The translations under genes and the position numbers were made by a program. A stretch of DNA of 64,000 nt from an uncultured Candidatus Saccharibacteria bacterium (GTDB lineage: Bacteria > Patescibacteriota > Minisyncoccia > Phycocordibacterales > UBA9973): the NCBI GenBank assembly GCA_964606295.1, contig CAZSFR010000001.1, forward strand, positions 56,504 through 120,503, written 5' to 3'. The notes under the pieces were generated by a model. The model worked only from the letters and a program-made list of their open reading frames with translations, did no database searches and was not told the DNA's origin. This document shows positions 43,846 to 64,000 of this stretch, piece after piece. How positions within the stretch are numbered: the stretch's first letter is position 1; each line of letters starts with the position of its first letter.

Positions 43846-44805
43846 ATGAAAAAAATAAAAGAATATGCGGAACTTCTCGCAAAGGCTTCCCTTGAAATCG
43901 GGAGCATACAACTACGGCCAAATGATCCATTCATTTGGGCAAGTGGGACTCGTAATCCTATATACAATGATAACAGAATGCTTCTAGCTGAGTACGAACA
44001 TCGCATGCTAGTGACAAAGTCACTCATTGATGTTCTTGCTGAAAACGAAATTGGGCTACAGCACGTAGACTACATCTGCGGAACATCGCTCTCCGGCATC
44101 GGACCAGCGTCAACTCTCGCCGACATCCTTCACAAGAAAATGCTTATATTTGTAGATGATACTCCATACGAGTTCTCCTCTGTGATGAATTTACCGATTG
44201 GAAATTCGTACAATAGAAGCATTGTATCGTCTGCACCATTTGGCATACCACTTGGCGTGCTGTTTGCAAACATGTACAAACTTCGATTTTCGTACGTTCG
44301 CCCAGCAGTAAAAAAACATGGATTAAAGAAGTCGATCGAGGGAGCGGATGTAGTGAACGAAGATTTCGATTTAATCAACGTTGGCGATGATCAGGCTAAG
44401 TCGAACTGTTTATCAGCACTAAGCAATCAAGATCTACATTGCAAAACAGTGACCCATTACTCGCCTGAAAATATTTTTCAAAAAGCAGAGCTTTCAAACA
44501 AATGTGTGATTGTTGTAGAAGACTTGATATCTACAGGAGCTTCATTTGCAAAGGAGGCAGACGCATGTAAAAAGGCAGGCGCAGAGGTACTATGCGTACT
44601 AACTATATTCAATTACGAGCTAGAAAGCTCAAAGGAATTGATAGCAAAAGCTGGGTATGAAGTATATTCAGCACTCACGTACCAACAGTTACTTCAGACA
44701 GCTGTTGAATTAAAATTTGTTGATGAGAATCAACTAAAAGTGCTGAAGGAATGGCGGGAGGATCAACCCAATTGGGGAGATAAGCATGGTTTTCCAGTAA
44801 AATAA
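43846..44805 (+). CDS. pyrE: Orotate phosphoribosyltransferase, with an inserted segment of about 100 aa (319 aa total).
   Basis: N-terminal OPRTase block (…IGSIQLRPNDPFIWASGTRNPIYNDNR…) and PRPP-binding motif VIVVEDLISTGAS. Confidence 0.7.
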   Translation: MKKIKEYAELLAKASLEIGSIQLRPNDPFIWASGTRNPIYNDNRMLLAEYEHRMLVTKSLIDVLAENEIGLQHVDYICGTSLSGIGPASTLADILHKKMLIFVDDTPYEFSSVMNLPIGNSYNRSIVSSAPFGIPLGVLFANMYKLRFSYVRPAVKKHGLKKSIEGADVVNEDFDLINVGDDQAKSNCLSALSNQDLHCKTVTHYSPENIFQKAELSNKCVIVVEDLISTGASFAKEADACKKAGAEVLCVLTIFNYELESSKELIAKAGYEVYSALTYQQLLQTAVELKFVDENQLKVLKEWREDQPNWGDKHGFPVK

Positions 44806-51916: not shown

Positions 51917-53677
51917 CTACTTTATCTTCTTATCAACATCATCGATTTCCTTTTCTATGATGTTTCCTGCTACGGACAGATCATTTCTCAATTTTGTTAG
52001 GAATGCTTGCTCATGTACTGAAAGAGGTTCTCCTGCTCTTACTTTTTTCAAGATTTCAATCTCATCTACTACTTCTTGATCAATAATCTTCATAGATTGA
52101 GCTGTAACTTCTTTTGCTTGCCCAACTTGAATGTGTAGCATTTTTTTATATTTTCTCCATCCTCTCAGTATAAGAATCCCAATCACAAATAAAAGTAGCA
52201 CTGCAATCAGTATTGGTATAATCGGTAGTATAATCCTCAAAGCCATATTCATAAATTTACCGAACACTCCTGGTAACACGGAGACGGAATAACTTTCTGT
52301 GAGAGTACTCTCAGCTCCGTTGTCCAAACGTGCTTTTGCAACAAAGTGATACTCACCGACTTTCCAGGCAGTTTTCATTGTGAAGTCGAAAGTACCATTC
52401 GGGTTGACTTTGACAATATTTTCATCACTTATTTTATTTTTACTGAATATTCTACCAATCCATGTTTCATTTTCCTTTTTGAAGTCAAATACTACATACG
52501 AATTTGCTATCGCAGTACCACTTGCTCTGAACACCGTGCCTCCATCAAGCTCTTGAGTGTAACTCAGTATAACCGGGACGCTAATTCCCTCGTATGTAAA
52601 ATAAACAACATTCACAATGTCATTTCCTGCATAATCATTGGCTCTTACAACCAACTGATGTTGGCCAAGAGAAAGCACCCCCGTGCTGTAAAGTGATTCT
52701 TCCGTTGTTTTCTGCCATATTACAGGATTCGAAGCATCTATACTTATTTCATAATTCTCTATACCAGACGTTGCATCAGTAGCGTTTAGTAAAAAATGTG
52801 TCGAGCCATCTTCGGGTTCTTTTTCGACTTTCGTAATGGTAAAATCACTTGGCTTCGTCTTATCGACATTAATTTTGAAATGCGTCGTCCCCCCCCAGCC
52901 GTAGCTATTTTTTAGTCTCAAGTGAAAGTACCACGTACCGTCTGTTATCTCTGCACTGGTATATGAAGAAGTTAATCCTTTGTCTTGCGTTGGAGTAGTT
53001 GTCGCATTTTTGTCGAGAACAAAGCTAACTGAGGTAGCATCAGTAGGGACTTGCCACTCAAACTGAGGCACAGATATCGCAAACCAGTCATTTGGGTCTG
53101 GGTGCGTTGGAGAGGTCACCAGAGGAGGTAGTGGAGAATTTGTTCCGGACATCGACGGTGTTGTGACTATTCCACCGCTTTGACCAATCGTGACAATAGA
53201 TTTTGGCAGTGAACCAGAGAGTATGTTGGTACCCTCCCCGTCGTTTGCCAGTATAGATGCTTGAGTCAATTCAAATGTAGCAATACCTGTACCTTCCGTC
53301 TTCCAACTAACTGTAAAAAGTTTGCCTCCAGTACCACTGAAACCAGGATTCAAAACCAATCCTTCAAATCTAACAGCCCCTGCTTCACTCGAAGGTTGTA
53401 TTGTCCAGAAATTTACAATGGTTCCGGATGTATTTATAGTTGGCGCACTCAACAAATTTGTTGGGTAATAGATACGTCCAGAAAAAGCATTTATGGCTTG
53501 ACTGGTACTGGATACTGAAACCGTCAATGTGATTGTCTCTCCTGTGTCTATGTTTGCTGTAGCAGGACTCACAGAGAATGTAGCTGCTTCAACGCCATGA
53601 AACGATACAGCAAAGAAGGCCGTTACAACAAGGAATTTCAATACAAATTGTTTGAAGTTTATAGAATAAAAATGCAT
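51917..53677 (-). CDS. Surface protein: signal peptide, N-terminal cohesin-like domain, Ig-like middle region, C-terminal TM anchor and cytoplasmic tail.
   Basis: ATFSVSPATANIDTGETITLTVSVSS…AINAFSGRIYYPTNLL…GKLFTVSWKTEGTGIATFEL follows the cohesin pattern. C-terminal TM LRIILPIIPILIAVLLLFVIGILIL. Confidence 0.5.
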   Translation of the reverse strand: MHFYSINFKQFVLKFLVVTAFFAVSFHGVEAATFSVSPATANIDTGETITLTVSVSSTSQAINAFSGRIYYPTNLLSAPTINTSGTIVNFWTIQPSSEAGAVRFEGLVLNPGFSGTGGKLFTVSWKTEGTGIATFELTQASILANDGEGTNILSGSLPKSIVTIGQSGGIVTTPSMSGTNSPLPPLVTSPTHPDPNDWFAISVPQFEWQVPTDATSVSFVLDKNATTTPTQDKGLTSSYTSAEITDGTWYFHLRLKNSYGWGGTTHFKINVDKTKPSDFTITKVEKEPEDGSTHFLLNATDATSGIENYEISIDASNPVIWQKTTEESLYSTGVLSLGQHQLVVRANDYAGNDIVNVVYFTYEGISVPVILSYTQELDGGTVFRASGTAIANSYVVFDFKKENETWIGRIFSKNKISDENIVKVNPNGTFDFTMKTAWKVGEYHFVAKARLDNGAESTLTESYSVSVLPGVFGKFMNMALRIILPIIPILIAVLLLFVIGILILRGWRKYKKMLHIQVGQAKEVTAQSMKIIDQEVVDEIEILKKVRAGEPLSVHEQAFLTKLRNDLSVAGNIIEKEIDDVDKKIK

Positions 53678-53689
53678 TTTAGAACTCTC

Positions 53690-54601
53690 TTATTGTACCT
53701 TTATTTTCTTAAATTTTCTAGGAACGAAGAAGATAACAAATGCAAAAATAGCAGTAACTATGAGAAGTGGTATCACCAAAATCGATACCGGAAAAAATTG
53801 CTCAGAATGTATTTGGGCTATACGTACGTTGCCAGCATTATCAATGGCCTTTACGCGTACTAGCGACCTCATAGATTGATCCTCTAGAAGATACGGGCTT
53901 TCTGCAACTTTCCAATCAGAATTGCCCTCCTTTACCTCAAAACGACTAATCCCAGACTCTTTGTCAGTTGTAGAAAATATCAAAAAATATTTTCCATCAA
54001 AAATGTATTGATTACTGGATATTTGTGGATAGAAAACCAAAGGTCTTTCAATGTCACTCGCGAAATTAGTACCGACTTCGCCCGTTTCGGAGGAAATCAC
54101 CCTAAATGGATATAGCAAAGTGGGAGCTTTGGTGCCAAGCCCATCATTAAAATACGCTTGCCCTGTTGTAAGGTACAACTCGGATGTAGAAATGGACTTT
54201 GTGGTAAAAATTGCAGAAAATAGTTTACCATCGAGATATGTCTGGTCTAGTGGGTTGATCGTGCCTCCAAATCCTCCAACCATTATCCCTGAAAATTTGA
54301 CACTCGATCCATTTGCTTTTGGTCTCTCAATCCACGAGGTAACAACAGAACTACCATCTCTAATACCAACCAACTCCAAGTGTTCATCGTCAAAAACCAA
54401 CTCTCCCTCGACTGCATTTATCAATTCTTCACTGGAATTTATAAAGACAGTGACTTCAAATTCAGCATTCGCTAGTACGGGGAATTTTTGATCTGATTGA
54501 AAGTAAATAGTCGCAGCATTAGCTTGCTTGTGTCCCAGAAAAAGCATGCTAAGAGTCACGAGGAGAATAAAAGTACATTTTTTTGAAAATAAATTGATCA
54601 T
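53690..54601 (-). CDS. Surface protein with an N-terminal cohesin-like domain and a C-terminal TM anchor.
   Basis: ATIYFQSDQKFPVLANAEFEVTVFINSSEELINAVEGELVFDDEHLELVGIRDGS… is a cohesin-like block. C-terminal TM plus KFKK tail. Confidence 0.5.
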   Translation of the reverse strand: MINLFSKKCTFILLVTLSMLFLGHKQANAATIYFQSDQKFPVLANAEFEVTVFINSSEELINAVEGELVFDDEHLELVGIRDGSSVVTSWIERPKANGSSVKFSGIMVGGFGGTINPLDQTYLDGKLFSAIFTTKSISTSELYLTTGQAYFNDGLGTKAPTLLYPFRVISSETGEVGTNFASDIERPLVFYPQISSNQYIFDGKYFLIFSTTDKESGISRFEVKEGNSDWKVAESPYLLEDQSMRSLVRVKAIDNAGNVRIAQIHSEQFFPVSILVIPLLIVTAIFAFVIFFVPRKFKKIKVQ

Positions 54602-54606
54602 ATGAT

Positions 54607-55545
54607 TTATCCAGTCCAGTAATATGCCAATATAGAGAAATCGACAAGCGTAATACGGCCATCTCCTGACAAATCTAGTTCAAGTGGCGCTCCCAATCTC
54701 CCGTACCAATACGCCAATATAGAAAAGTCTGTGATATTCACTCTGCAGTCTCCTGTGAAGTCTCCTTTTGGCGGACAACCTGAATTTAGAACAGTCTCAT
54801 TACCAACAGTAAATCCAACTATACTAGAATAAGATGTTACTTCTGCTCCGAGTGTTGACAACGACCTTGTGCTATGTGAGCCAAGTTCCAATACACCCGT
54901 ATTGAACCTATAGAGATATGCACCATAGTCGTCAGATGTCGTAGACAAAAAATACGGAACCAATGAATTAACATTGATAGTTATCGAAGCGTTTGGTGCA
55001 CTTTCCCCGAGTATAGTGATCGTTTCTCCTTTTGCAACAACAGTCTTATCGATAGATATAGTAGGGGCAATATAGATACCAGAAATAGTAGTCGATATAT
55101 TTTCTGTTACTACAATAGGAAATGTGAAGAGTGTTGACCTTCTCTCTTCACTATCCTCAGCCAAAACAGAAAACGTATACGAACCAGCTGGTAAATCAGA
55201 GATTGTTAGTGTAAATTTTGCATCAAGTCCAGCTGTAGTTTGTGCAATCTCAACTCCGTCTTGCAAAAATATTACTGCGGAGAAGGGATAAGCTCTGCCG
55301 GAGAACGTGACAGATGAATCTCCATCGTTCTGACCTCCTCCACCACCGCCCCCACCACCTCCTGCTCCTCCAGGATCGCCCACAGCAACAGTTGCAGTTA
55401 TGGTGACGTCTTCACTTACAGCACCCAACTCTCTTGGAGTTGAATCGTAAAAGATTCCTACTCCGAGAATGATAATTACAGATAAAATGCACCTGAATGA
55501 TTTATATAAATCATTCTTACTAAACTTTAGGAGTGGAAGTTTCAT
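54607..55545 (-). CDS. Secreted protein with a poly-Gly run (GGAGGGGGGGGGGQ), Ig-like domains and a C-terminal type-I-like dockerin (two Ca-binding repeats).
   Basis: C-terminus GDFTGDCRVNITDFSILAYWYG…DLSGDGRITLVDFSILAYYW is two D-x-x-G-D-x-x-V/I-N/T-x-x-D-F-x-x-L repeats. Confidence 0.55.
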   Translation of the reverse strand: MKLPLLKFSKNDLYKSFRCILSVIIILGVGIFYDSTPRELGAVSEDVTITATVAVGDPGGAGGGGGGGGGGQNDGDSSVTFSGRAYPFSAVIFLQDGVEIAQTTAGLDAKFTLTISDLPAGSYTFSVLAEDSEERRSTLFTFPIVVTENISTTISGIYIAPTISIDKTVVAKGETITILGESAPNASITINVNSLVPYFLSTTSDDYGAYLYRFNTGVLELGSHSTRSLSTLGAEVTSYSSIVGFTVGNETVLNSGCPPKGDFTGDCRVNITDFSILAYWYGRLGAPLELDLSGDGRITLVDFSILAYYWTG

Positions 55546-56566
55546 TCATTTCTTTCTTTAGCTCCTCCTTAATCTCAGAGCGCAATGACTCCTTCAAATT
55601 TCTTCGATAATGCGTCTTTGCACGCTTCATAATATTTATAAACAAGAACAATCCAACTACTATAACAATAAGAAGGTGCCAAGGCACTACAAAAAATCCA
55701 GTTTTTGCAGTTGATGTCTGGTCACTTTCAGCTCCGTACGCTAGCGATATATTTGCAGTATAGTATCCGAAAGCAAAATTCTTCCATTCATACACAACTT
55801 TTTTGAAAAATCCTAGATTTTCAATATTTGCAACATCACTTGATCCTCTGCTTGATTGCCAAGTAGCTTCAAATCTTCTTGTCTGTGATGGTAATACGTT
55901 ACCTTGAGCGGAGTTTGCAAGAACTTTTGCCCTCACAAAACCAAACATATGTCTGATGACTATATCTCCATCTGGCTTTATCCTATCTCCGCCTGAATTT
56001 TGGAATCTGTAATAAAAAGAAACCGGGAGTGCAGTAAAAAAATTCTTATTGTCAATTGTGCCGTATTCAATAATACCTCCTTCTTCATCTACATCTCCGT
56101 TTACACGGAGCAACACCAAAACACCAGTTTTTGCACCAATTGCTATAGATCCTTCCCCGCTAACTTCAGGATTATTTGTACCCCAAAATACTGCAGCGAA
56201 ATACCCACCAGGCTCAGCTATTTCTGGTATATCGATTGTGACTGGAACTATCTTACTTGTGCCAGGTGCAAGTATTACCATGGAGTCTGTTTGCATCCAT
56301 GTTCCCAGCCCATCTACAGGAGTTACGAAACTTGGACTTCCCGTCTCCCCTTGTGCTTCAAAGTTTGAGAATGAAGAGTAAAATGTTTGACTTGTGTCTC
56401 TATCGTTTATAAGTGTAATCTCACTTTCAATAGTAGCTCCAGGGTCTCCGCTTAATTCTATGAGAACTGGCGTAAGTGTCAGAGCGTGCGCTTTGCTGAC
56501 AAAACTAGATGAAAAAATTATGACTGAGCAAAGTATAACCGCTAGTGTTGTTATTTTTTTTTGCAT
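55520..56566 (-). CDS. Bitopic surface protein: signal peptide, about 260-aa beta-rich ectodomain, C-terminal TM, basic cytoplasmic tail. The architecture is reminiscent of DUF916/DUF3324 proteins from Gram-positive WxL/Csc surface loci.
   Basis: Signal MQKKITTLAVILCSVIIFSSSFVSKAHA, TM FFVVPWHLLIVIVVGLFLFINIM, tail KRAKTHYRRNLKE… The gene begins with an A9 homopolymer. Confidence 0.45.
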   Translation of the reverse strand: MQKKITTLAVILCSVIIFSSSFVSKAHALTLTPVLIELSGDPGATIESEITLINDRDTSQTFYSSFSNFEAQGETGSPSFVTPVDGLGTWMQTDSMVILAPGTSKIVPVTIDIPEIAEPGGYFAAVFWGTNNPEVSGEGSIAIGAKTGVLVLLRVNGDVDEEGGIIEYGTIDNKNFFTALPVSFYYRFQNSGGDRIKPDGDIVIRHMFGFVRAKVLANSAQGNVLPSQTRRFEATWQSSRGSSDVANIENLGFFKKVVYEWKNFAFGYYTANISLAYGAESDQTSTAKTGFFVVPWHLLIVIVVGLFLFINIMKRAKTHYRRNLKESLRSEIKEELKKEMNETSTPKV

Positions 56567-56579
56567 TATATTTTATGTA

Positions 56580-57677
56580 TTAGAAATTCCCCGTCGCTAT
56601 ATATGTAACATCTGTCGAGTATGAACCCGCTTCTGTTGTTGTCGCGATGTTTGCGATGTATTGAACGTCGATTGTTTCAGTTGCAGTAGCTATTGTTTCA
56701 GATGCGATGGTGGTTGTAGTGCCGGCAACAAACGCGTAGCTATTTGTTCCCGCAAGTTCGTATGCGGATGCTATCGTCACGTTACCTCCGTTATCGTCGA
56801 TACCTAGAGCAAACTGCTCTGATGCTGGGGTGCCGTCTGCGTCTGATGCAATAGTCGCTACGTTTATAGTGTTCGCTCCACTTGTGAGAGTGGCACCGAA
56901 GTATGTGATCGAGTATCCAGATGCAGCGTTTGTGGCAATAGTCATTTCGTGCGCCCCAGTTGTATCACCTGGTAGAACTCCTGTACCAGTTGCATCTGCT
57001 GTCGCATATCGTGCAGCGGTTGCATCGAGAGCTCCGAACCCTATCGCTACGTCAGATATTGTGAAAGTGATTGTTGGGCTCACCGTTGCAGTGATGTTGA
57101 CTGAGTCGTCTGCGATGATGTCGATAGCGATTGTTCCTGTGTCTCCGAATCCACCAGTGAACACGATAGTGTCGTCGTCATCAGCCGAACCGTTGGTTAC
57201 CGTACTCGCTGAACCTGTCGCACCAGTCGTCGCTGCTGTACCCCAGACAAGGCGCATACAGAATCCTGCTGTTAGGGTCTGATCTGTTTCTGGTGAAAGA
57301 GTAATTACATTACCCGTTACGTCCACTCCCCAGTCTGTAGCTGATGCAGTAGTAGCAACTACTTCATCTGTATATACAGCAGATGAACATGTTGCACTAT
57401 CTCCTAACTCGACGTCAAAATTGTTTACGTCTTCAGCTGCAAGAGTAAAGTCTGCACTGAAAGTAAGTATGATAGTATCACCTCCCACTTGGATACCTGT
57501 CGGGGTGGCAAATTGAACTGTTCCAGAACTGTTTGCTGTTGAAGCTTCTATTCTCCCTAGTGTTGCTGTCGCATTGGTCACCGAGGCAGCCATAGCCTTG
57601 CTTGGGAGCAGAGTTATAATTCCAGTTGCAGTGACGATAAATACAAAAACAAAAAGAGATGTTGCGAATTTTTTCAT
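56580..57677 (-). CDS. Secreted Thr/Ala/Gly-rich protein (365 aa), paralog A. Sec signal with A-M-A cleavage site. Conserved C-terminal ~170-aa domain ending in …SYSTDVTYIATGNF.
   Basis: Signal MKKFATSLFVFVFIVTATGIITLLPSKAMA|ASVT. The 3' 480 bp are identical to paralog B. Confidence 0.6.
   Translation of the reverse strand: MKKFATSLFVFVFIVTATGIITLLPSKAMAASVTNATATLGRIEASTANSSGTVQFATPTGIQVGGDTIILTFSADFTLAAEDVNNFDVELGDSATCSSAVYTDEVVATTASATDWGVDVTGNVITLSPETDQTLTAGFCMRLVWGTAATTGATGSASTVTNGSADDDDTIVFTGGFGDTGTIAIDIIADDSVNITATVSPTITFTISDVAIGFGALDATAARYATADATGTGVLPGDTTGAHEMTIATNAASGYSITYFGATLTSGANTINVATIASDADGTPASEQFALGIDDNGGNVTIASAYELAGTNSYAFVAGTTTTIASETIATATETIDVQYIANIATTTEAGSYSTDVTYIATGNF
56590..57070. 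repeat. About 480-bp segment 100 % identical to 57820-58300: the shared 3' halves of the two tandem paralog genes.
   Basis: Direct comparison of the two stretches. The plus-strand shadow ORFs 56830.. and 58060.. share identical first 77 residues. Confidence 0.8.
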
Positions 57678-57809
57678 AATCTTAGTAAGGACGTATTATC
57701 TATTATTTTATATGGATATATTATAACATTTTTACTAAAAATTGCCTCGCACATCGTCTGTGGATAACTTATCTGAACAGCTCAACCCCAGAAACAGAAT
57801 CAATCTATA

Positions 57810-58910
57810 TTAGAAATTACCAGTTGCTATATATGTAACATCTGTCGAGTATGAACCCGCTTCTGTTGTTGTCGCGATGTTTGCGATGTATTGAACGTCG
57901 ATTGTTTCAGTTGCAGTAGCTATTGTTTCAGATGCGATGGTGGTTGTAGTGCCGGCAACAAACGCGTAGCTATTTGTTCCCGCAAGTTCGTATGCGGATG
58001 CTATCGTCACGTTACCTCCGTTATCGTCGATACCTAGAGCAAACTGCTCTGATGCTGGGGTGCCGTCTGCGTCTGATGCAATAGTCGCTACGTTTATAGT
58101 GTTCGCTCCACTTGTGAGAGTGGCACCGAAGTATGTGATCGAGTATCCAGATGCAGCGTTTGTGGCAATAGTCATTTCGTGCGCCCCAGTTGTATCACCT
58201 GGTAGAACTCCTGTACCAGTTGCATCTGCTGTCGCATATCGTGCAGCGGTTGCATCGAGAGCTCCGAACCCTATCGCTACGTCAGATATAGAAAAGGTGA
58301 TTGTTGGGCTCACGGTTGCAGTGATGTTGACTGAGTCGTCCGTTATGATATCTATTGCGATAGTTCCTGTGTCTCCGAATCCACCAGTTATTGCAACGGA
58401 ATCATCATCATCTGCTCCACCGTTTGCCATAGTACTGGCTGAACCCGTACCTCCAGTTGTTGCAGCTGTACCCCAGACGAGACGCATACAGAATCCTGCA
58501 GTGAGGGTTTCGTCTGTGTCTGGCGAAAGAGTAAGGACATCCCCTGTGACATCTATTCCCCATTCCGTTCCAGAAGCATTAAGAGCAACTGTTTTATCGG
58601 TATAAACTGCAGTAGAGCACGTTGCACTGTCGCCGAGCTCTATATCAAAGTTTACCGCGGATTCTCCAACGAGTACGAAATCAGAACTAAAAGTAAGTAT
58701 GATTGTATCTGCGCCTCCTGTTTGAATGCCTGTCGGAGTCGCAAATTGAATAGTACCGGAATCGTTTGCACCTGTAGCTTCTATTCGTCCGAGTGTTGCA
58801 CTCGCGCTGGTCACCGAGGCAGCCATAGCCTTGCTTGGAAGCAAAGAAATAGCTCCGGTCGCTGTGACAATGAAGACAAGTACAAAAAGGGATGTTGCGA
58901 ATTTTTTCAT
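57810..58910 (-). CDS. Secreted Thr/Ala/Gly-rich protein (366 aa), paralog B. Tandem duplicate of paralog A with a diverged N-terminal half. Start is MKKFATSLFV at 58910.
   Basis: Same signal peptide and C-terminal domain as paralog A. Its upstream intergenic region is also related to that of paralog A. Confidence 0.6.
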   Translation of the reverse strand: MKKFATSLFVLVFIVTATGAISLLPSKAMAASVTSASATLGRIEATGANDSGTIQFATPTGIQTGGADTIILTFSSDFVLVGESAVNFDIELGDSATCSTAVYTDKTVALNASGTEWGIDVTGDVLTLSPDTDETLTAGFCMRLVWGTAATTGGTGSASTMANGGADDDDSVAITGGFGDTGTIAIDIITDDSVNITATVSPTITFSISDVAIGFGALDATAARYATADATGTGVLPGDTTGAHEMTIATNAASGYSITYFGATLTSGANTINVATIASDADGTPASEQFALGIDDNGGNVTIASAYELAGTNSYAFVAGTTTTIASETIATATETIDVQYIANIATTTEAGSYSTDVTYIATGNF

Positions 58911-59024
58911 AATCTTGATTAAGAGCACTTTCTCTATTAGTTTATGTATATTTATTATAGCACTTTTACAGAAAATCGTTATGCGGAACTTCTGTGGAAA
59001 GTTGATATGCATATCTCGCATTTA

Positions 59025-62000
59025 CTAAAAATTCCCCGTCATTATATATGTCAGATCTGTGGAGTATGTTCCAAATTCTGTGCCTGCCGCCATATTTGCA
59101 AGATACCGAATTGAATACGTAGTACTAAATCCATCTCCCTCTGTTTGAGTTGCAAAGGTATCGGCTGTAGTCGTGCCAGCATAGCCAAATCCTGCTCCAC
59201 TGTAAGTCGCATCAACTGCATCATAATAAGATACCCCAGAGAGGCTAGCACGGGCGCCGAATTGTTCGGTGCCTGTACTCGAAGCTGTATTTGTAGAGCC
59301 TATCTCATCTATTGTATCGCCTCCACTCGTCAAAGTATTTCCCGAAACTGTTATTGTATAACCTCCAGACGCACTCGTTGATCCGGTCATAGTATGCGCT
59401 TCTACTTCTGATGCGCTTCCCGTTGTATCGTCTGTCGCATACCTAGCAAGAGATGCGTCAAGTGATCCAAATCCAATAGTCGTATCAGATATCGCAAAAG
59501 AAATAGTTCTATCTTCTGGCTCAACCCACTGGATGCCTATCATCGCAAAGTCCCATTGGTTTACAGAATTACTAGCTGCGCCACCATCGACAGAAGTTCG
59601 AAGTCGATACCATGCCTCATCCCCTCCAGTGCTCACCAAATCTTCTGGATTTGTCATATAGCCGGCCATACCTCCAGAGGTATTTGTGGCCACTGTTATA
59701 TTGTCGGTATATACGAGGGCGGTAGTCGCCGACGCACCGAGTGCAATAAATCCTCCGATCGTAGCGGCAGCCGTGTTGTACCCCGAATAGTCCGCAATAC
59801 CGAGAGCAACTGTGCCGGCAACACCAGATAAAAATGAACTCGCAAAAAATATTCCTGTGATAGATCCATATGTTGGCTCTCCCATACTAAACTTCGTATG
59901 TGTTCCTGCCCCTTCTTCGTTGATTGTCGCGTCCATATCGACATCGAATGCATAGAAATCAAAAGCTGCGCCAGTCCCCCTGTTTGTAGATTCATTTTCA
60001 GTTGTTATCGTCCAAGCTGTTCCGTTATTTGTTGCACCTTCCAAGTTTACCGTACGCGTGGCAGTACAGTCATTTGTCGCAACTGTTCCAAACGATATAA
60101 AACACTTTGTTGCCCCATCATCAGAATTGGTTGTACCGAACATGAGATATGCCATGTCTATCTGTATCGCACCTGTGTCTGCTCCTGACGAGCGATAGAA
60201 TCGGAGCCTCGCTTCCCCTTCTGATACATAATCATCCATGGTGATGTTGTTTACCGCTCCAATACGGAACGTATCTGTCGTCGAACAAGATGCGATCTCA
60301 TTAATGATGTTCACCCACGCAGCTGTCGTAAAGTTATAAAGCGCCATTCTCACTTCCAGCGCAGTGCCTCCTACGGAACATGCAAATTCTGCGCGAGCAA
60401 GTATGGTATTCATACCAGGATACGTTTTTACATTTTTATACGATATATAACAATCGGGACCTCCAGTGGTACCGAGACACTGCAGGTCTATATTGTTCGA
60501 ACCCGCCTGCGTGACCGTATTTGCATTGGTGTAGTCGCCAGTAAAACTATTTGTAAGTGCTACAGCACCTGCTGGCTCATAGACTGGATTGATAACAGGA
60601 AAAATGCGCAGATAGTCAATCGCGAAGTTGCCCGCAGTTGTAGCGTTGGTCGTTGAATAATATCTAAAAAGGACACGCTTGTTCGCATCGGTTGTGACAA
60701 AATTGGTAAGTGGAGTGGAGATCGCTGTGTTTGAACCATTGGACCATTTGCCGTCATACACATTCCACGTATATGCTGTCGCTGTCGTTGGTGAAATAGT
60801 GGCGTCGCGTGAATTGAGTGTTCTCCACCCGCCTCCGGTGCAGTTTGCATCGGCCACATGGTCGACACTCGTCGTCGAAATCCAATCGCATATTTGTACC
60901 AACAGCACAGGTGCGGTCACGTCGGTGTCTATCTCTGACTGGACGATAATAGTATTCGCACCATTGAGCTTCACTCCATCGAGTTTTAGTTGGACATCAA
61001 TACCCGATGCTGTACCAGTAAGTTCCCAGTGTCTGTTGTCGTCTGCTGTTGTTCCTTTCCATGAACCGGTATTGGCACCGTTTGCTCCTGCTGCGATAAT
61101 ATTGTTTGCAGTAGTATCTGTTCCCGTAACGAGTGTTTGACCTGTAGGTATAAATGCATGGGTGACAGTTGGGTTGTAAGAATCCTCAACCCACTGTATC
61201 GATAGCATCACGAAATCCCACGCAGTTGTAGAGTTATCTGTCGTAGCACCTGAAGTAGATGTACGCAGGCGCATGTTCATAATGCCATCCACTGTATCGA
61301 CATAATTTTCTGGATTTAGTTGGAGTCCGTAGGCCAGTGCGCCCGTCGCAGACAGCGTATCTTGAAATGTTTGTGTCGTTGCGTTAACAGCAGAACCGAC
61401 ATCAGTCCAGCCACCAGTAATAGAAGTGAAACCAGAATAATCGTTAATACCATTTATCACTTGAGTTGTACCGATACTTCGAGATGTAGTACGACTAGCC
61501 CAATTGATACCAACAACTTGCGCATTTGCTGGCACGGTTATTGGTACTGATACATTTGCGGACACACCCTCTTCGGCTGTCACGTCTTGATCTGTGTCGA
61601 ACGGGTAAAATGAATTTGCTTCACCTGTTCCCATCGCTGCGGATTCGTCCTCGCCTGCGATATCGAACGACGTCGTAGATCCGTTTGTATCCATTCCGCG
61701 AGTATTCGTGCAGTTTGTCGCAGTTCCAGTTCCAAAAGAAATCTCACAGAGCGATGAGTCAGCGTTTACAGAGCCGAGCATTATGTACTGCCAGTCCAAT
61801 AGAATACCGTTGGTAATAGCAGAGGTACTTGCCCATCTGATACGAATCTCTCCATCTGAAATAAAGTCATTGAGAACAAATCCAGCATCCGAAACTGTGT
61901 TGTGTGCAATATAGTAACTCGTGTCCGTCGTTGAGCAGGTGATGTTCGCAGAGCCGAGTGCATCCCACGTTGACGTCGTGAAATCATAAATATAGGGCCT

Positions 62001-63032
62001 GATAGTTGGGGTACCGCTGTTGCAACTCACGGATGATGCGAGCATGATAGTGTTCATGCCAGTATATTGCTTCACATTTTTATATGACAAATAAAAATCA
62101 ACAACTTGAGAACTCGCGGCTACTCCCACACGGATGTTGTCGTTTGTGCCTACCGTCGTCACTGATGTAGCATTGTTTACCAGCGGAATCGAGTTTACAT
62201 ACACACCCACTTCTGCCCCGTCACCAGATACTTGATCGACATAATCCGCTGCATAATACACAGAATCTATATATGCAAATACGGTAAGGTAATCAATCGA
62301 TACAACAGATGTGGTATTTGTCGTTGAATAAAATCGGATTTTCAATTCACTGCTACTGTTTACAAAATTCGTAAGTGGAGTGTCGATAGGAGTGCCTGCA
62401 TCAGATGTTCCGTTAGAAAAAACACCATCGTATATTTGCCAGCGCAACTGGTCGTTTGCTGTATCTGTATACGCAACATCAGCATTGGCAGCTGTTTGTG
62501 TATTGATAGTACGCCATCCACCAGTTGTACAATTTGCATCTGCTACATTGTCGACGTTTGTCGAAGAAGTGAAGTCGCAGATCTGGAAAACCATACTAGG
62601 AACTGTCGCATCAAGGTCTATCTCAAGGCCTATATCTATTTTATTGGCACCATTTAGATTTACCCCTCCGACGGTCGTCACCAGTGAAATACCAGAGGCC
62701 GTAGAGGCAACAGTCCAATGAAAACTATCGTTACCTTGCATAGCTTGATATGAGCCGAGATTTGTACCTTCGACTGCTGCGATCGTCGCTGATGTCACTA
62801 TCTGTTCAGTACCCGTTTCCACAGTGGTAGCAGTAGGGAAAAATTGATACGTCGCAGCATCTGCTTTTGGGATATCTCGTACAATTTCTTTGCTCGAAGC
62901 AACACGAGAAAGTATTATCTCTGGAATACCACTGACTAAAAACAAAACTATCAAAACAAAAGATACAACTTTTTGAAATTCAATTGCACTTAGAGATTTC
63001 CTTATTTTATTTTTTAAAATTATAAAAAACAT
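59025..63032 (-). CDS. Giant (1335-aa) surface protein. It has an N-terminal signal/anchor, two ~500-aa internal tandem repeats with conserved Cys pairs, and a C-terminal ~170-aa domain homologous to paralogs A and B (…FGTYSTDLTYIMTGNF).
   Basis: Repeat blocks ICDFTSSTNVDNVADANCTTGGWRTIN / ICDWISTTSVDHVADANCTGGGWRTLN, LSYKNVKQYTGMNTIML / ISYKNVKTYPGMNTILA, WDFVMLSIQWVE / WDFAMIGIQWVE. Confidence 0.6.
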   Translation of the reverse strand: MFFIILKNKIRKSLSAIEFQKVVSFVLIVLFLVSGIPEIILSRVASSKEIVRDIPKADAATYQFFPTATTVETGTEQIVTSATIAAVEGTNLGSYQAMQGNDSFHWTVASTASGISLVTTVGGVNLNGANKIDIGLEIDLDATVPSMVFQICDFTSSTNVDNVADANCTTGGWRTINTQTAANADVAYTDTANDQLRWQIYDGVFSNGTSDAGTPIDTPLTNFVNSSSELKIRFYSTTNTTSVVSIDYLTVFAYIDSVYYAADYVDQVSGDGAEVGVYVNSIPLVNNATSVTTVGTNDNIRVGVAASSQVVDFYLSYKNVKQYTGMNTIMLASSVSCNSGTPTIRPYIYDFTTSTWDALGSANITCSTTDTSYYIAHNTVSDAGFVLNDFISDGEIRIRWASTSAITNGILLDWQYIMLGSVNADSSLCEISFGTGTATNCTNTRGMDTNGSTTSFDIAGEDESAAMGTGEANSFYPFDTDQDVTAEEGVSANVSVPITVPANAQVVGINWASRTTSRSIGTTQVINGINDYSGFTSITGGWTDVGSAVNATTQTFQDTLSATGALAYGLQLNPENYVDTVDGIMNMRLRTSTSGATTDNSTTAWDFVMLSIQWVEDSYNPTVTHAFIPTGQTLVTGTDTTANNIIAAGANGANTGSWKGTTADDNRHWELTGTASGIDVQLKLDGVKLNGANTIIVQSEIDTDVTAPVLLVQICDWISTTSVDHVADANCTGGGWRTLNSRDATISPTTATAYTWNVYDGKWSNGSNTAISTPLTNFVTTDANKRVLFRYYSTTNATTAGNFAIDYLRIFPVINPVYEPAGAVALTNSFTGDYTNANTVTQAGSNNIDLQCLGTTGGPDCYISYKNVKTYPGMNTILARAEFACSVGGTALEVRMALYNFTTAAWVNIINEIASCSTTDTFRIGAVNNITMDDYVSEGEARLRFYRSSGADTGAIQIDMAYLMFGTTNSDDGATKCFISFGTVATNDCTATRTVNLEGATNNGTAWTITTENESTNRGTGAAFDFYAFDVDMDATINEEGAGTHTKFSMGEPTYGSITGIFFASSFLSGVAGTVALGIADYSGYNTAAATIGGFIALGASATTALVYTDNITVATNTSGGMAGYMTNPEDLVSTGGDEAWYRLRTSVDGGAASNSVNQWDFAMIGIQWVEPEDRTISFAISDTTIGFGSLDASLARYATDDTTGSASEVEAHTMTGSTSASGGYTITVSGNTLTSGGDTIDEIGSTNTASSTGTEQFGARASLSGVSYYDAVDATYSGAGFGYAGTTTADTFATQTEGDGFSTTYSIRYLANMAAGTEFGTYSTDLTYIMTGNF

Positions 63033-63033
63033 T

Positions 63034-64000
63034 TTATTGTGTCAAAATATCTACGACTTCGAGTTGTTCATCATTTTTAATATCTTCATTGGCAGTAGTG
63101 TCAGTTTTCAATTGATTGAGCGCTTCTTCTTCCGCTATTTTCTCTTCGAGAGGGGTAACAATTTCAAGATTTGCTGGATCGATTGCAATCTCACTTACAT
63201 CTCCGTTTGGTTCCAAATATTTTACTTCAGATTCTAGAGAAGTACTAATACTTTGTGACGACATCCCTCCAGAAGCAGTATTGTATTGATTTATCGCAGT
63301 CTTATCTCGTGAAAGCCAGAAAATAATCGTGCCTGAAACATCAACAGGTGTTGCAATGTCTACAGTATCGCCTGATGCAACAAAATTCCATTCTAGTCCT
63401 TTTGCTCGTTCGGCTTGTATTTGTTCATCAGTATAGATTATAGGTATTACTCCAGGAACTATTTCTTCGGTAGTTGTAATAATAGGAATATTTTCATCGT
63501 CAAAATATTGTGTAGACTGCGGAATATTTTCATTTACAAAATTATTTATGATAATCACCCCTTCACCTGGTGTCGGCACAGAATCAAAATCAGACTGCGT
63601 ATTCTCTTCATTTATTTCTTGATCTTCAGAAGGAACTTCTTCATCAATATTCAAATCAAGTGACGATGATTCCGGATCTATATCAGTATTAGTATCAGTG
63701 TTGGCCTCAACCTCAGGCTCAGTAGAAGAATCCGAAGTGACACTGACTTCATCACCAGATGAGGACGAATCAGAAGTATCACCGCTCGTTTCAGTTGCTC
63801 CCTCTTCGGCATAGACTGGATGTAATCCAAATAATGATTTTATTTTATTTAAAACAGTCACTTCATTTGTCGAAGGTGTCACTATATCTTCTGTCACTGG
63901 AACCTCTTCTATGATTGGAGTAGGATCTTCTGTTATCGGATCCTCTTCTACGGCTGGGGCCGGATCTTCTGTCGTAACAGGAACATCTATCAAAATGTCT
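63034..64000 (-). CDS. Partial CDS (5' end beyond the window): extremely acidic, Thr/Glu/Asp/Pro-rich repetitive protein. Probably part of the same surface locus.
   Basis: The ORF continues in frame past position 64000. Sequence EDPAPAVEEDPITEDPTPIIEEVPVTED… is low complexity. Confidence 0.45.
   Translation of the reverse strand, partial: DILIDVPVTTEDPAPAVEEDPITEDPTPIIEEVPVTEDIVTPSTNEVTVLNKIKSLFGLHPVYAEEGATETSGDTSDSSSSGDEVSVTSDSSTEPEVEANTDTNTDIDPESSSLDLNIDEEVPSEDQEINEENTQSDFDSVPTPGEGVIIINNFVNENIPQSTQYFDDENIPIITTTEEIVPGVIPIIYTDEQIQAERAKGLEWNFVASGDTVDIATPVDVSGTIIFWLSRDKTAINQYNTASGGMSSQSISTSLESEVKYLEPNGDVSEIAIDPANLEIVTPLEEKIAEEEALNQLKTDTTANEDIKNDEQLEVVDILTQ

Follow-up and report, generated by a model that had tools for sequence, protein, structure and literature searches.

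Tandem Pam-type pilin genes sharing an identical C-terminal tract in a CPR bacterium: probable gene conversion between old paralogs

Introduction

The closest described system is the Pam pilus of Candidatus Mycosynbacter amalyticus, which involves the pilins PamA and PamB and the chaperones PamC and PamD (Troman et al., bioRxiv 10.64898/2026.03.03.709456). In the Pam structures, the linker is a strand donated to the neighbouring subunit, and a groove in the C-domain accepts the linker of the neighbour; gene conversion, paralogs and recombination are unmentioned in the preprint (bioRxiv 10.64898/2026.03.03.709456). The first description of Pam pili dates from 2026; the pili are thought to establish the initial contact of CPR epibionts with their hosts.

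The locus studied here lies in the window, that is, the whole 64-kb stretch of DNA that was analysed. It resembles the Pam system in that the pilin C-domain scores above the threshold of NCBIfam NF058581, and in the predicted order of signal peptide, N-domain, linker and Ig-like C-domain. Again, one operon combines a pair of pilin genes with the gene of an adjacent two-Ig chaperone-like protein that has a C-terminal transmembrane (TM) helix, and the family is restricted to CPR bacteria. In contrast to the multi-chaperone PamA/B/E/T/R set, a giant C-domain protein is followed here by two pilins and one chaperone. The named relatives are of Parcubacteria type (Paceibacterota, Kerfeldbacteria, Nomurabacteria and Doudnabacteria), whereas the Pam preprint stresses Saccharimonadia and Microgenomatia.

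Results

The cluster comprises the following features, all on the minus strand.

59025..63032, minus strand: giant protein, 1335 aa, predicted to be secreted, upstream of both pilins
about 59028-59507, minus strand: Pam-type C-domain of the giant protein (NF058581 match, residues 1205-1335)
58911..59024, minus strand: upstream region of pilin 2, with the extended -10-like box TGCTATAAT at 58954-58962
57810..58910, minus strand: pilin 2, 366 aa (NF058581, 69.7 bits; domain HMM matches)
about 58821-58910 and 58353-58820, minus strand: predicted signal peptide and N-domain of pilin 2
58302-58352 and 57813-58301, minus strand: linker and C-domain of pilin 2
57678..57809, minus strand: intergenic spacer of 132 nt separating pilin 2 from pilin 1, with TGTTATAAT at 57720-57728
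56580..57677, minus strand: pilin 1, 365 aa (NF058581, 70.4 bits; AlphaFold2 model)
57588-57677 and 57123-57587, minus strand: predicted signal peptide and N-domain beta-sandwich of pilin 1
57072-57122 and 56583-57071, minus strand: linker of pilin 1, with the candidate donor strand DIIADDSVNITATVSPT, and its C-domain
56596..57059, minus strand: identity tract, copy 1 (codons 208-361, 464 nt)
57826..58289, minus strand: identity tract, copy 2 (464 nt)
55520..56566, minus strand: candidate Pam chaperone, 348 aa (two Ig domains, signal peptide, C-terminal TM helix)
51917..55545, minus strand: three more surface-protein genes of the cluster, in the same orientation (Pfam and NCBIfam matches)

Since both pilin genes lie on the minus strand, their 3' halves encode the C-terminal halves of the proteins. 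Pilin 2 is colinear with pilin 1 from MKKFATSLF onwards, and a longer reading of pilin 2, a 403-aa ORF from 59021, is probably an over-call. The three genes at 51917..55545 encode proteins of 312 aa (Ig domain and dockerin), 303 aa (C-terminal TM) and 586 aa. They are kept downstream of the chaperone, with tblastn matches in 52-55 related loci (designated here by L numbers) and a colinear order in L004 and L001. The tandem pilin layout was also found in about 12 other species.

The two pilins and the giant protein (62.5 bits) all exceeded the curated cutoff of NF058581 (CPR_Pam_pilin_C), which is 55 bits. The AlphaFold2 model of pilin 1 (pLDDT 91) places ten strands in residues 34-185 and a beta domain at 203-362; the segment that joins them, 186-202, is unpaired. 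This predicted fold matches the description in the Pam preprint, with a beta-sandwich N-domain, a linker and a C-domain. The N-terminus, MKKFATSLFVFVFIVTATGIITLLPSKAMA/AS, has the n-h-c layout and AxA site of a signal peptide, and a helix was modelled at residues 2-23. More than 570 homologues of pilin 1 were collected, and every one of named origin belongs to a CPR bacterium. No match to the pilins or the giant protein was obtained in Pfam, a profile search of PDB sequences gave chance-level matches only, and fold searches, in a PDB copy containing no Pam filament structure, yielded nothing more specific than generic Ig-like adhesins and pilins. Based on the NF058581 scores and on the agreement of the predicted fold with the preprint, both proteins are Pam-type pilins of a CPR (Patescibacteria) bacterium. 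The preliminary description had proposed, from the sequence, fibre subunits with a constant assembly domain; this agrees with the present assignment, the constant part being the C-terminal domain, which is the donor-strand acceptor according to the preprint.

The 348-aa protein adjoining the pilins agrees with the definition of PamC and PamD as adjacent PapD/FimC-like chaperones with a C-terminal transmembrane helix. It is a candidate membrane-anchored PapD/WxLIP-like chaperone of the PamC/PamD kind, and also a candidate remote relative of WxLIP. The Pam system also includes a tip pilin, PamT, and an RbmA-like anchor, PamR. Among the cluster proteins scanned, no PamT or PamR equivalog was found; the PamT model (NF058579), whose cutoff is 240 bits, reached no more than 20-22 bits, on the pilins only. 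The operon may run past the end of the window.

When the regions upstream of the two pilins were aligned, 75 of 108 positions were identical, which bears out the earlier remark that the intergenic regions are related. In each pilin gene, an extended -10-like box (TGnTATAAT) common to both regions lies 42-43 nt before the ATG. The boxes were seen only through this alignment. A generic promoter and terminator scan found no convincing signal ahead of the pilin genes or in the interval separating them, and the box of pilin 2 was missed by the generic sigma-70 scan because it has no good -35 element.

The comparison of the two pilin genes revealed an exact identity run at an offset of 1230, in which 56596-57059 equals 57826-58289 over 464 nt. 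Codons 208-361, corresponding to the C-terminal domain, showed 0 differences in 462 nt. The repeat that had been reported at 56590-57070 and 57820-58300 is thus confirmed, with the correction that these wider ranges hold six mismatches at their ends. The 5' parts are indeed diverged, with 76.4% DNA identity (472/618) instead of the 60-70% first estimated, and with about 76% identity in protein. With positions matching at a rate of 0.764, an unbroken run of 464 matches would arise by chance with a probability of about 1e-54. In codons 1-207, 146 nucleotide differences were counted (dN 0.127, dS 1.11 with a range of 1.1-1.4, omega 0.11-0.12), and on these estimates synonymous sites outside the tract are near saturation. 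Past the tract, three of the last five codons differ synonymously, and divergence also returns downstream of the genes. With diverged sequence on both sides of the tract and dS near saturation, the comparison indicates an old duplication overlaid by a recent gene-conversion tract, rather than a recent duplication. A further argument for conversion comes from another species, L024: the N-domain of one of its pilins is 87% identical to that of pilin 1, against 76% for the tandem partner.

Short-read assemblers can collapse near-identical repeats, so that the value of 100% may be slightly inflated and the true value could be at least 99%. A functional element hidden in the tract was also considered and rejected. 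The composition of the repeat gives rise to the antisense ORFs at 56830-57282 and 58060-58605 as a by-product, and orthologous C-domain DNA in L001 and L004 is unconserved (about 70%).

The giant protein consists of two internal repeats of ~555 aa, 44% identical to each other, followed by the Pam-type C-domain, and it is 74% identical to the giant protein of L001. The C-terminal module does recur in 59025-63032, as had been suggested, although not as the same sequence: giant and pilin C-domains share 51% amino acid identity (77/152) and about 63% DNA identity. The pilin-type linker motif, present in 78 of 92 pilins, was absent from all 20 giant homologues compared, and it was likewise not found in the giant protein of the window. 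Since this protein carries a Pam C-domain and lacks the pilin linker motif, it could be a tip adhesin or an acceptor-only subunit.

Long identical tracts between Pam paralogs, in the N- or the C-domain, were detected in five other species. In L039, the C-domains share 444 identical nt and the N-domains are 63% identical; in L077, the identical tract measures 471 nt. L037 holds one pilin pair with 450 identical nt in the C-domain and another pair with 441 nt in the N-domain. In L035, 421 nt are identical in the N-domain, with C-domains at 81%, and in L061 a 248-nt identical tract is common to a giant protein and a pilin. In most cases, namely the window, L039, L077, L027, L032, L042 and L066, the elevated identity covers the linker and the C-domain. 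No long identical run was found between the tandem pilins of L001 and L004, whose C-domains are 75-80% identical.

Identity values show that the N- and C-domains have had conflicting histories across genomes, which switch at the linker. L004 is the closest genome (FtsZ 94%, chaperone 78% identical), and its pilins match those of the window at 73-76% in the C-domain and 36-46% in the N-domain. The L024 pilin behaves in the opposite way: its N-domain is 87% identical and its C-domain 36%. The crossover falls at residues ~172-185; in DNA, the stretch colinear with L004 begins at window positions 57128-57139. Identity matrices and the crossover plot showed that the converted segment groups by genome, and the unconverted one by paralog type or with another lineage. 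It was considered whether an L024-like lineage had recently donated the N-domain by horizontal transfer, given a core that is 95-100% identical in protein; "recent" is ruled out by the DNA identity of 74% in that core. The discordance is accounted for just as well by ancient paralog sorting together with concerted C-domain evolution as by an N-domain transfer.

These data also bear on whether conversion serves a purpose. It is quite possible that the conversion is real and selectively neutral, RecA-type recombination acting on sufficiently identical tandem repeats with no role in subunit compatibility. The N-domain tracts of L035 and L037 fit such an origin, as do the functioning of related species with C-domains 75-80% identical and the mere 51% identity between the giant C-domain and those of the pilins. 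On the other hand, most cases of elevated identity take in the linker and the C-domain, through which, in the published Pam structures, subunits contact one another and the chaperone. Of the earlier proposal that gene conversion maintains a constant C-terminal module, the conversion is upheld by the diverged flanks; upkeep of the module by selection is no more than a possibility, and in other genomes conversion tracts lie over the N-domain instead.

Whether the tandem repeat is physically real was evaluated on independent contigs, which were reached through the members of the pilin 1 cluster (an exact-sequence look-up of pilin 1 matched no contig). Two strains were compared, that of the window (NCBI contig) and L081 (ENA ERZ505514), a 5x short-read contig. 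L081 has the same two-copy layout, and the unique joint of pilin 2, spacer and pilin 1 is present with 0 mismatches. Over five more sites (594-618), L081 pilin 1 carries the pilin-2 alleles and hence a longer tract, with possible mis-threading at the edge of this 5x contig. Site 660/663 is changed in both copies, from C/C in the window to T/T in the L081 sequence, again a 5x short-read contig. A JGI contig identical to the window stops inside the repeat, as is expected of a true repeat in a short-read assembly.

An assembly artefact, in which strain alleles of a single gene were laid in tandem or a repeat was collapsed, is very improbable. It could be suspected in a metagenome-assembled genome, from the break of the JGI contig within the repeat and from the tendency of De Bruijn assemblers to pop small repeat bubbles. 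However, the joint, with its 132-nt spacer and its own promoter-like box, is unique and occurs in both the NCBI and the ENA contigs, and the tandem layout is seen in other species. Collapse would remove a few differences; it would not create the contrast with flanks of dS > 1.

The preliminary description had also likened the genes to antigenic or adhesin variation cassettes. Programmed variation of the Neisseria pilE/pilS kind, with variable N-terminal cassettes shuffled onto a constant C-terminal anchor, would fit a constant module joined to differing N-terminal parts and the varying N-/C-domain combinations across genomes. It is nonetheless highly unlikely, because both copies are complete, each with a predicted signal peptide and a promoter-like box, and no silent or partial copies occur: the only ORFs in the 64-kb window with these domains (three with the C-domain, two with the N-domain) are complete genes. 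In addition, the exchanged part is the constant one and not the variable one. The N-domains are under strong purifying selection (dN/dS 0.11), with a core strongly conserved in L024 despite the DNA divergence. No N-terminal population variation, named at the outset as decisive for that idea, was detected, as the N-domains of both pilin genes showed no differences between the window and L081 (two strains).

A recent duplication had also been raised earlier, and the tandem arrangement and one perfectly identical half would suit it. A recent tandem duplication of the whole gene, after which the N-terminal half alone diverged rapidly under positive selection, can be dismissed as the least probable account, since the 5' divergence is mostly synonymous (omega 0.11), differences resume past the tract in the last five codons and downstream, and the pilin 1 N-domain is nearer to L024 than to pilin 2.

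Discussion

The best explanation is that the two genes are paralogous Pam pilins derived from an old duplication and that their 464-nt identity arose by gene conversion between the tandem copies, to which a probability of roughly 85% is assigned. Four parts are predicted in each pilin, beginning with a Sec signal peptide; a beta-sandwich N-domain and a short linker follow, and an Ig-like domain forms the C-terminus. Non-reciprocal homologous recombination between the tandem copies would recently have overwritten one C-domain with that of the other. Such conversion may be continuing in the species of the window and has recurred in other CPR genomes, with crossovers tending toward the conserved FGDxG...DIIxDD...ITATV linker region. 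Both pilins would co-polymerise in one filament by means of the single adjacent chaperone, and the giant protein, with an acceptor domain and no pilin linker, would sit at the filament tip. A homogenised linker and C-domain might help the subunits to stay mutually compatible; a neutral by-product of tandem homology is equally possible.

A broader reading, rather doubtful at present, is that the linker and C-domain form an exchangeable "polymerisation cassette", genome-specific and matched to the chaperone, that is copied among paralogs including the giants, while ancient N-domain types are re-paired with it. If it were true, Pam pili would be a plug-and-play scaffold for CPR host-attachment domains and, together with a WxLIP-like chaperone, would have an evolutionary link to the WxL clusters of surface proteins in Firmicutes.

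The locus widens the Pam system to Parcubacteria-type lineages with a simpler layout. Its subunit genes are mosaics, the assembly module and the exposed module each having a history of its own, and conversion is probably still under way in the species. Testable ideas follow on which parts need to match for co-polymerisation and on the identity of the tip protein. For annotators and tree-builders, the caution is that Pam pilins are not single evolutionary units.

Compared with the chaperone-usher pili (Pap/Fim, Csu, CFA/I), the present system is found without an outer membrane or usher, its candidate donor strand is an internal linker and not an N-terminal extension, and its chaperone candidate is membrane-anchored. 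No sequence homology to these pili was detectable among the cluster proteins with Pfam. In the WxL clusters of Firmicutes, the C-terminal WxL domain carries two Trp-x-Leu motifs, and the WxLIP partner unites DUF916, DUF3324 and a TM helix. The pilin C-domain has no Trp and hence no Trp-x-Leu motifs, and none of 38 pilin family members matched the Pfam WxL model; WxL proteins are described as peptidoglycan-bound and not as filament-forming.

Concerted evolution by gene conversion is known for duplicated bacterial genes such as tufA/tufB and for pilin and fimbrial families. The likeness to these cases lies in the sharp identity tract within old paralogs, the grouping by genome and, as far as the 5x contig of L081 indicates, tract ends that may vary between strains. 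The difference is that the tract boundaries here correspond to a protein-domain junction, and the exchanged unit would be, by analogy with Pam, the module through which a donor-strand fibre polymerises. As a process, conversion between paralogs in tandem is textbook knowledge, and the present case is a solid and fairly ordinary example of concerted evolution in a newly named system.

Gene layout and the identity tract

Every gene across 51917-63993 lies on the minus strand, the ones of concern here being:

51917-55545, minus strand, three surface-protein genes downstream of the chaperone-like gene, conserved and colinear in relatives
55520-56566, minus strand, chaperone-like gene (348 aa, two Ig domains, C-terminal TM helix)
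56580-57677, minus strand, pilin 1 (365 aa)
57810-58910, minus strand, pilin 2 (366 aa in the preferred reading)
59025-63032, minus strand, giant gene (1335 aa)

An orotate phosphoribosyltransferase homologue at 43846-44805 (plus strand) was matched in three pieces, leaving a gap from residue ~107 to ~214, which suggests a protein insertion, or a split or intron-containing gene.

For pilin 2, the ORF finder gave a longer call to 59021 (403 aa), and public gene calls are of 400-403 aa with a start near the stop codon of the giant. Colinearity with pilin 1 from MKKFATSLF, together with conserved upstream DNA carrying a promoter-like box inside the extension, points to the ATG at 58910 as the true start. 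The upstream regions of both pilin genes are related, as had been noticed earlier: they could be aligned over ~108 nt, 75 of them identical, and each contains TGnTATAAT 42-43 nt 5' of the ATG.

A run of 464 nt is identical in both pilin genes (56596-57059 = 57826-58289, offset 1230 nt). The base-for-base repeat of the preliminary description was therefore right in substance, with ranges a few bases too wide; since assemblers may erase a few copy-specific differences of near-identical repeats, "100%" is better taken to mean no less than about 99%. The codon-by-codon comparison gave no differences in codons 208-361 and three, all synonymous, in codons 362-366. Within codons 1-207, 112 codons differ and the DNA identity is 76.4%, above the 60-70% first estimated (dS 1.11, dN 0.127, dN/dS 0.11). 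The sequences 3' of the two stop codons are unrelated. If matches occurred as often as in the 5' part, the chance of 464 in a row would be ~1e-54, and even at 90% identity ~1e-21. Antisense ORFs were found within both pilin genes (56830-57282, plus strand, 150 aa; 58060-58605, plus strand, 181 aa), duplicated as part of the repeat; these are most likely not genes but a consequence of a coding composition rich in Thr, Ala and Gly.

Assignment to the Pam family

No match was obtained in Pfam. The NCBIfam domain model NF058581 (CPR_Pam_pilin_C, cutoff 55 bits) recognized the C-terminal ~130 residues of pilin 1 (70.4 bits), pilin 2 (69.7 bits) and the giant (62.5 bits), so that the C-terminal module already noticed in the giant is a Pam C-domain, 51% identical to those of the pilins. 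The pilins PamA and PamB were identified by cryo-EM in filaments of the CPR bacterium Ca. Mycosynbacter amalyticus, and one filament may contain both (bioRxiv 10.64898/2026.03.03.709456). In each, a beta-sandwich N-domain of nine strands is followed by one linker strand and a truncated Ig-like C-domain, into which the neighbouring subunit's linker fits; conservation is highest in the linker and the site that binds it, and the operon encodes PapD/FimC-like chaperones carrying a C-terminal transmembrane helix (bioRxiv 10.64898/2026.03.03.709456). The same layout was seen in the AlphaFold2 prediction for pilin 1 (38-sequence alignment, mean pLDDT 91), with a helix at residues 2-23, taken as the putative signal peptide, strands at 34-185, an unpaired segment from 186 to 202 (DIIADDSVNITATVSPT) and, from 203 to 362, another beta domain. 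Fold searches in the PDB, against a library in which Pam entries were absent, returned only generic Ig-like adhesins and pilins.

The pilin family has >570 detectable members, and the named ones are all CPR (Kerfeldbacteria, Nomurabacteria, Paceibacterota, Doudnabacteria, Andersenbacteria, Parcubacteria RAAC4). A few loci lie in contigs binned as Gammaproteobacteria, Pseudomonadales or Bdellovibrionales; these labels were taken as binning errors, since the related locus L004 is colinear with the window despite its Pseudomonadales label.

Gene conversion between old paralogs

Both recent duplication and gene conversion had been proposed for the identical halves. Judging from its substitutions, the sequence on either side of the tract is old, with a dN/dS of 0.11 and synonymous sites close to saturation. 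In the N-domain, pilin 1 is 87% and 83% identical to pilins in the related loci L024 (another species) and L021, and only 76% to pilin 2, which places the split of the two N-domains before those lineages and rules against a recent duplication. Non-reciprocal recombination between the copies is the only explanation for C-domains without a single difference in paralogs whose N-domains separated so early. In this Parcubacteria-like CPR bacterium, concerted evolution between the tandem genes for Pam-type pilins is genuine and well supported.

An antigenic or adhesin variation system, also suggested earlier, is not supported in the form of the pilE/pilS kind: the 64-kb window contains no silent copies, purifying selection acts on the N-terminal halves (dN/dS 0.11), the N-domains of both genes do not differ between two strains, and it is the constant half, not the variable one, that is exchanged.

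Two-copy arrangement and a second strain

Two independent contigs were found via cluster members of both pilins. L081 (ENA ERZ505514, 8085 nt, ~5x coverage) has the window order of giant, pilin 2, pilin 1 and chaperone-like gene.

Mismatches between L081 and the window
Giant (4008 nt): 1
Spacer between giant and pilin 2: 0
Pilin 2: 1
Spacer between pilin 2 and pilin 1: 0
Pilin 1: 10
Chaperone-like gene (1047 nt): 85 (8.1%)

The recurrence of this layout, with the joint spacer unchanged, argues for two true copies and against an assembly artefact of a single one. A mixture of two alleles of one gene was discarded as well, because it could not produce the unique spacer from the pilin 2 stop to the pilin 1 start. 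L082 (JGI 3300020219) showed no mismatches and one gap, and ends at window position 58133 within the repeat, as is expected of a short-read assembler at a true repeat.

In pilin 1 of the low-coverage L081, pilin-2 bases occupy five more sites (gene positions 594, 612, 615, 616 and 618), so its tract would begin ~50 nt farther upstream. Within the tract, site 660 of pilin 1 (663 of pilin 2) is C in both window copies and T in both L081 copies. Since only 2 positions differ over the ~5.2 kb of giant, pilin 2 and both spacers, these shifted sites, taken at face value for a low-coverage contig, point to one or more conversion events during a very short period of divergence. The divergence in the chaperone-like gene sets in ~30 nt ahead of the stop codon of pilin 1 (55520-56610 compared); the explanation is either recombination between strains, with its breakpoint where the pilin gene ends, or chimerism of the contig.

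Recurrence in related loci

Among 80 related loci from different species, five more contain long exact runs between paralogs.

Identical runs between paralogs
L039: linker and C-domain, 444 nt; N-domain 63%
L077: 471 nt; a chaperone gene stands between the two genes
L037 (three copies), one pair: C-domain, 450 nt
L037, another pair: whole N-domain and linker, 441 nt; C-domain 87%
L035: N-domain, 421 nt; C-domain 81%
L061: 248 nt within the C-domain, 926-aa giant protein versus pilin

In L027, L032, L042 and L066 older, decayed tracts are visible, with DNA identities of 80-90% for the C-domain versus 56-78% for the N-domain. L001 shares the window order (giant, pilin, pilin, chaperone) and its giant is 74% identical, and no tract was found between its paralogs (C-domain DNA identity 70%, longest identical run 14 nt). 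Tract ends bunch in the conserved stretch FGDxG...D(I/F)(I/V)xDD...(I/V)TATV...TITF.

Discordant histories of the two domains

The closest genome, L004, is colinear from FtsA through the pilins, with protein identities of 88% (FtsA), 94% (FtsZ), 80% (TrxB), 59-79% (three surface proteins) and 78% (chaperone). Its two pilins match those of the window by 73-76% in the C-domain, against just 36-46% for the N-domain. In the loci whose N-domain matches best (L024, L021, L031 and L006; 77-87%), identity is no more than 36-54% for the C-domain and about 46-53% for the chaperone. Over 71 loci, N- and C-domain identities to the window pilin were negatively correlated (Spearman -0.30, p 0.01). The residue-by-residue identity plot switches at residues ~172-185, and DNA colinearity with L004 starts at 57128-57139.

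The N-domain core is 95-100% identical to that of L024 in protein and only 74% in DNA, which speaks for an ancient, strongly constrained type and excludes its recent import. The pattern fits ancient N-domain paralog types with lineage-specific retention and C-domains homogenised within genomes; it also fits module transfer between lineages.

Chaperone candidate, giant and neighbouring genes

A homologue of the chaperone-like gene was present in 78 of 81 loci, directly 3' of a pilin gene in nearly all, and on this basis the 348-aa protein was read as a candidate Pam chaperone. It may be remotely linked, by structure and weakly by sequence, to WxLIP, the partner protein of Firmicutes WxL clusters; this goes beyond the Pam preprint, which does not mention WxL (bioRxiv 10.64898/2026.03.03.709456).

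The giant comprises two ~555-aa repeats (44% identical, period 1665 nt) followed by its C-domain, ahead of which it reads ...IQWVEPEDRTISF... versus ...DIIADDSVNITATVSPTITF... in the pilins. The linker motif DD-x-V-x-[IV]-x-A-x-V was found in 78 of 92 pilins versus 0 of 20 giant C-domain proteins from related loci, where the lengths of giants run from ~780 to ~3080 aa. Tip subunits of chaperone-usher pili have an acceptor domain without a donor strand. As the same holds for the giant, and has been proposed for PamT (bioRxiv 10.64898/2026.03.03.709456), it is plausibly a tip adhesin by analogy. No PamT or PamR equivalog was detected among the cluster proteins scanned with NCBIfam.

Of the neighbours, a 312-aa protein (53690-55545 region, minus strand) has an Ig domain and then a dockerin-like module (PF00404, 21.7 bits, just below cutoff), and the 303-aa product of the next gene combines an OmpL47-type barrel domain and a TM helix at the C-terminus with an N-terminal part resembling cohesin by eye. 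They could form a cohesin-dockerin anchoring pair; both genes are kept in >50 related loci. In L002, L003, L010-L013, L016, L019, L076-L078 and others the operon has a second architecture, in which a pilin gene is followed by a chaperone, a divergent C-domain protein and two further chaperone-like genes, the window type being giant, pilin(s) and single chaperone. This second architecture may correspond to the multi-chaperone layout of M. amalyticus.

Possible role and relation to known systems

Going by the published Pam structures, the converted unit would be the part that binds the linker of the neighbour and the chaperone. With one chaperone for three C-domain proteins, a homogenised linker and C-domain could ensure that either pilin still fits in the place of the other within one filament, while the N-domains would provide differing filament surfaces or geometries. 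Alternatively, conversion may be neutral and merely seeded in the best-conserved DNA, a serious contender at somewhat less than even odds: relatives function with diverged C-domains, the giant C-domain is just 51% identical to those of the pilins, and other genomes have tracts over the N-domain.

The Pam system (described in 2026) and the conversion process (classical) are already known, and gene conversion is not mentioned in the Pam preprint (bioRxiv 10.64898/2026.03.03.709456). What is added to it is the domain-wise mosaic evolution of Pam pilins, and giant C-domain proteins without a linker as candidate tip adhesins.
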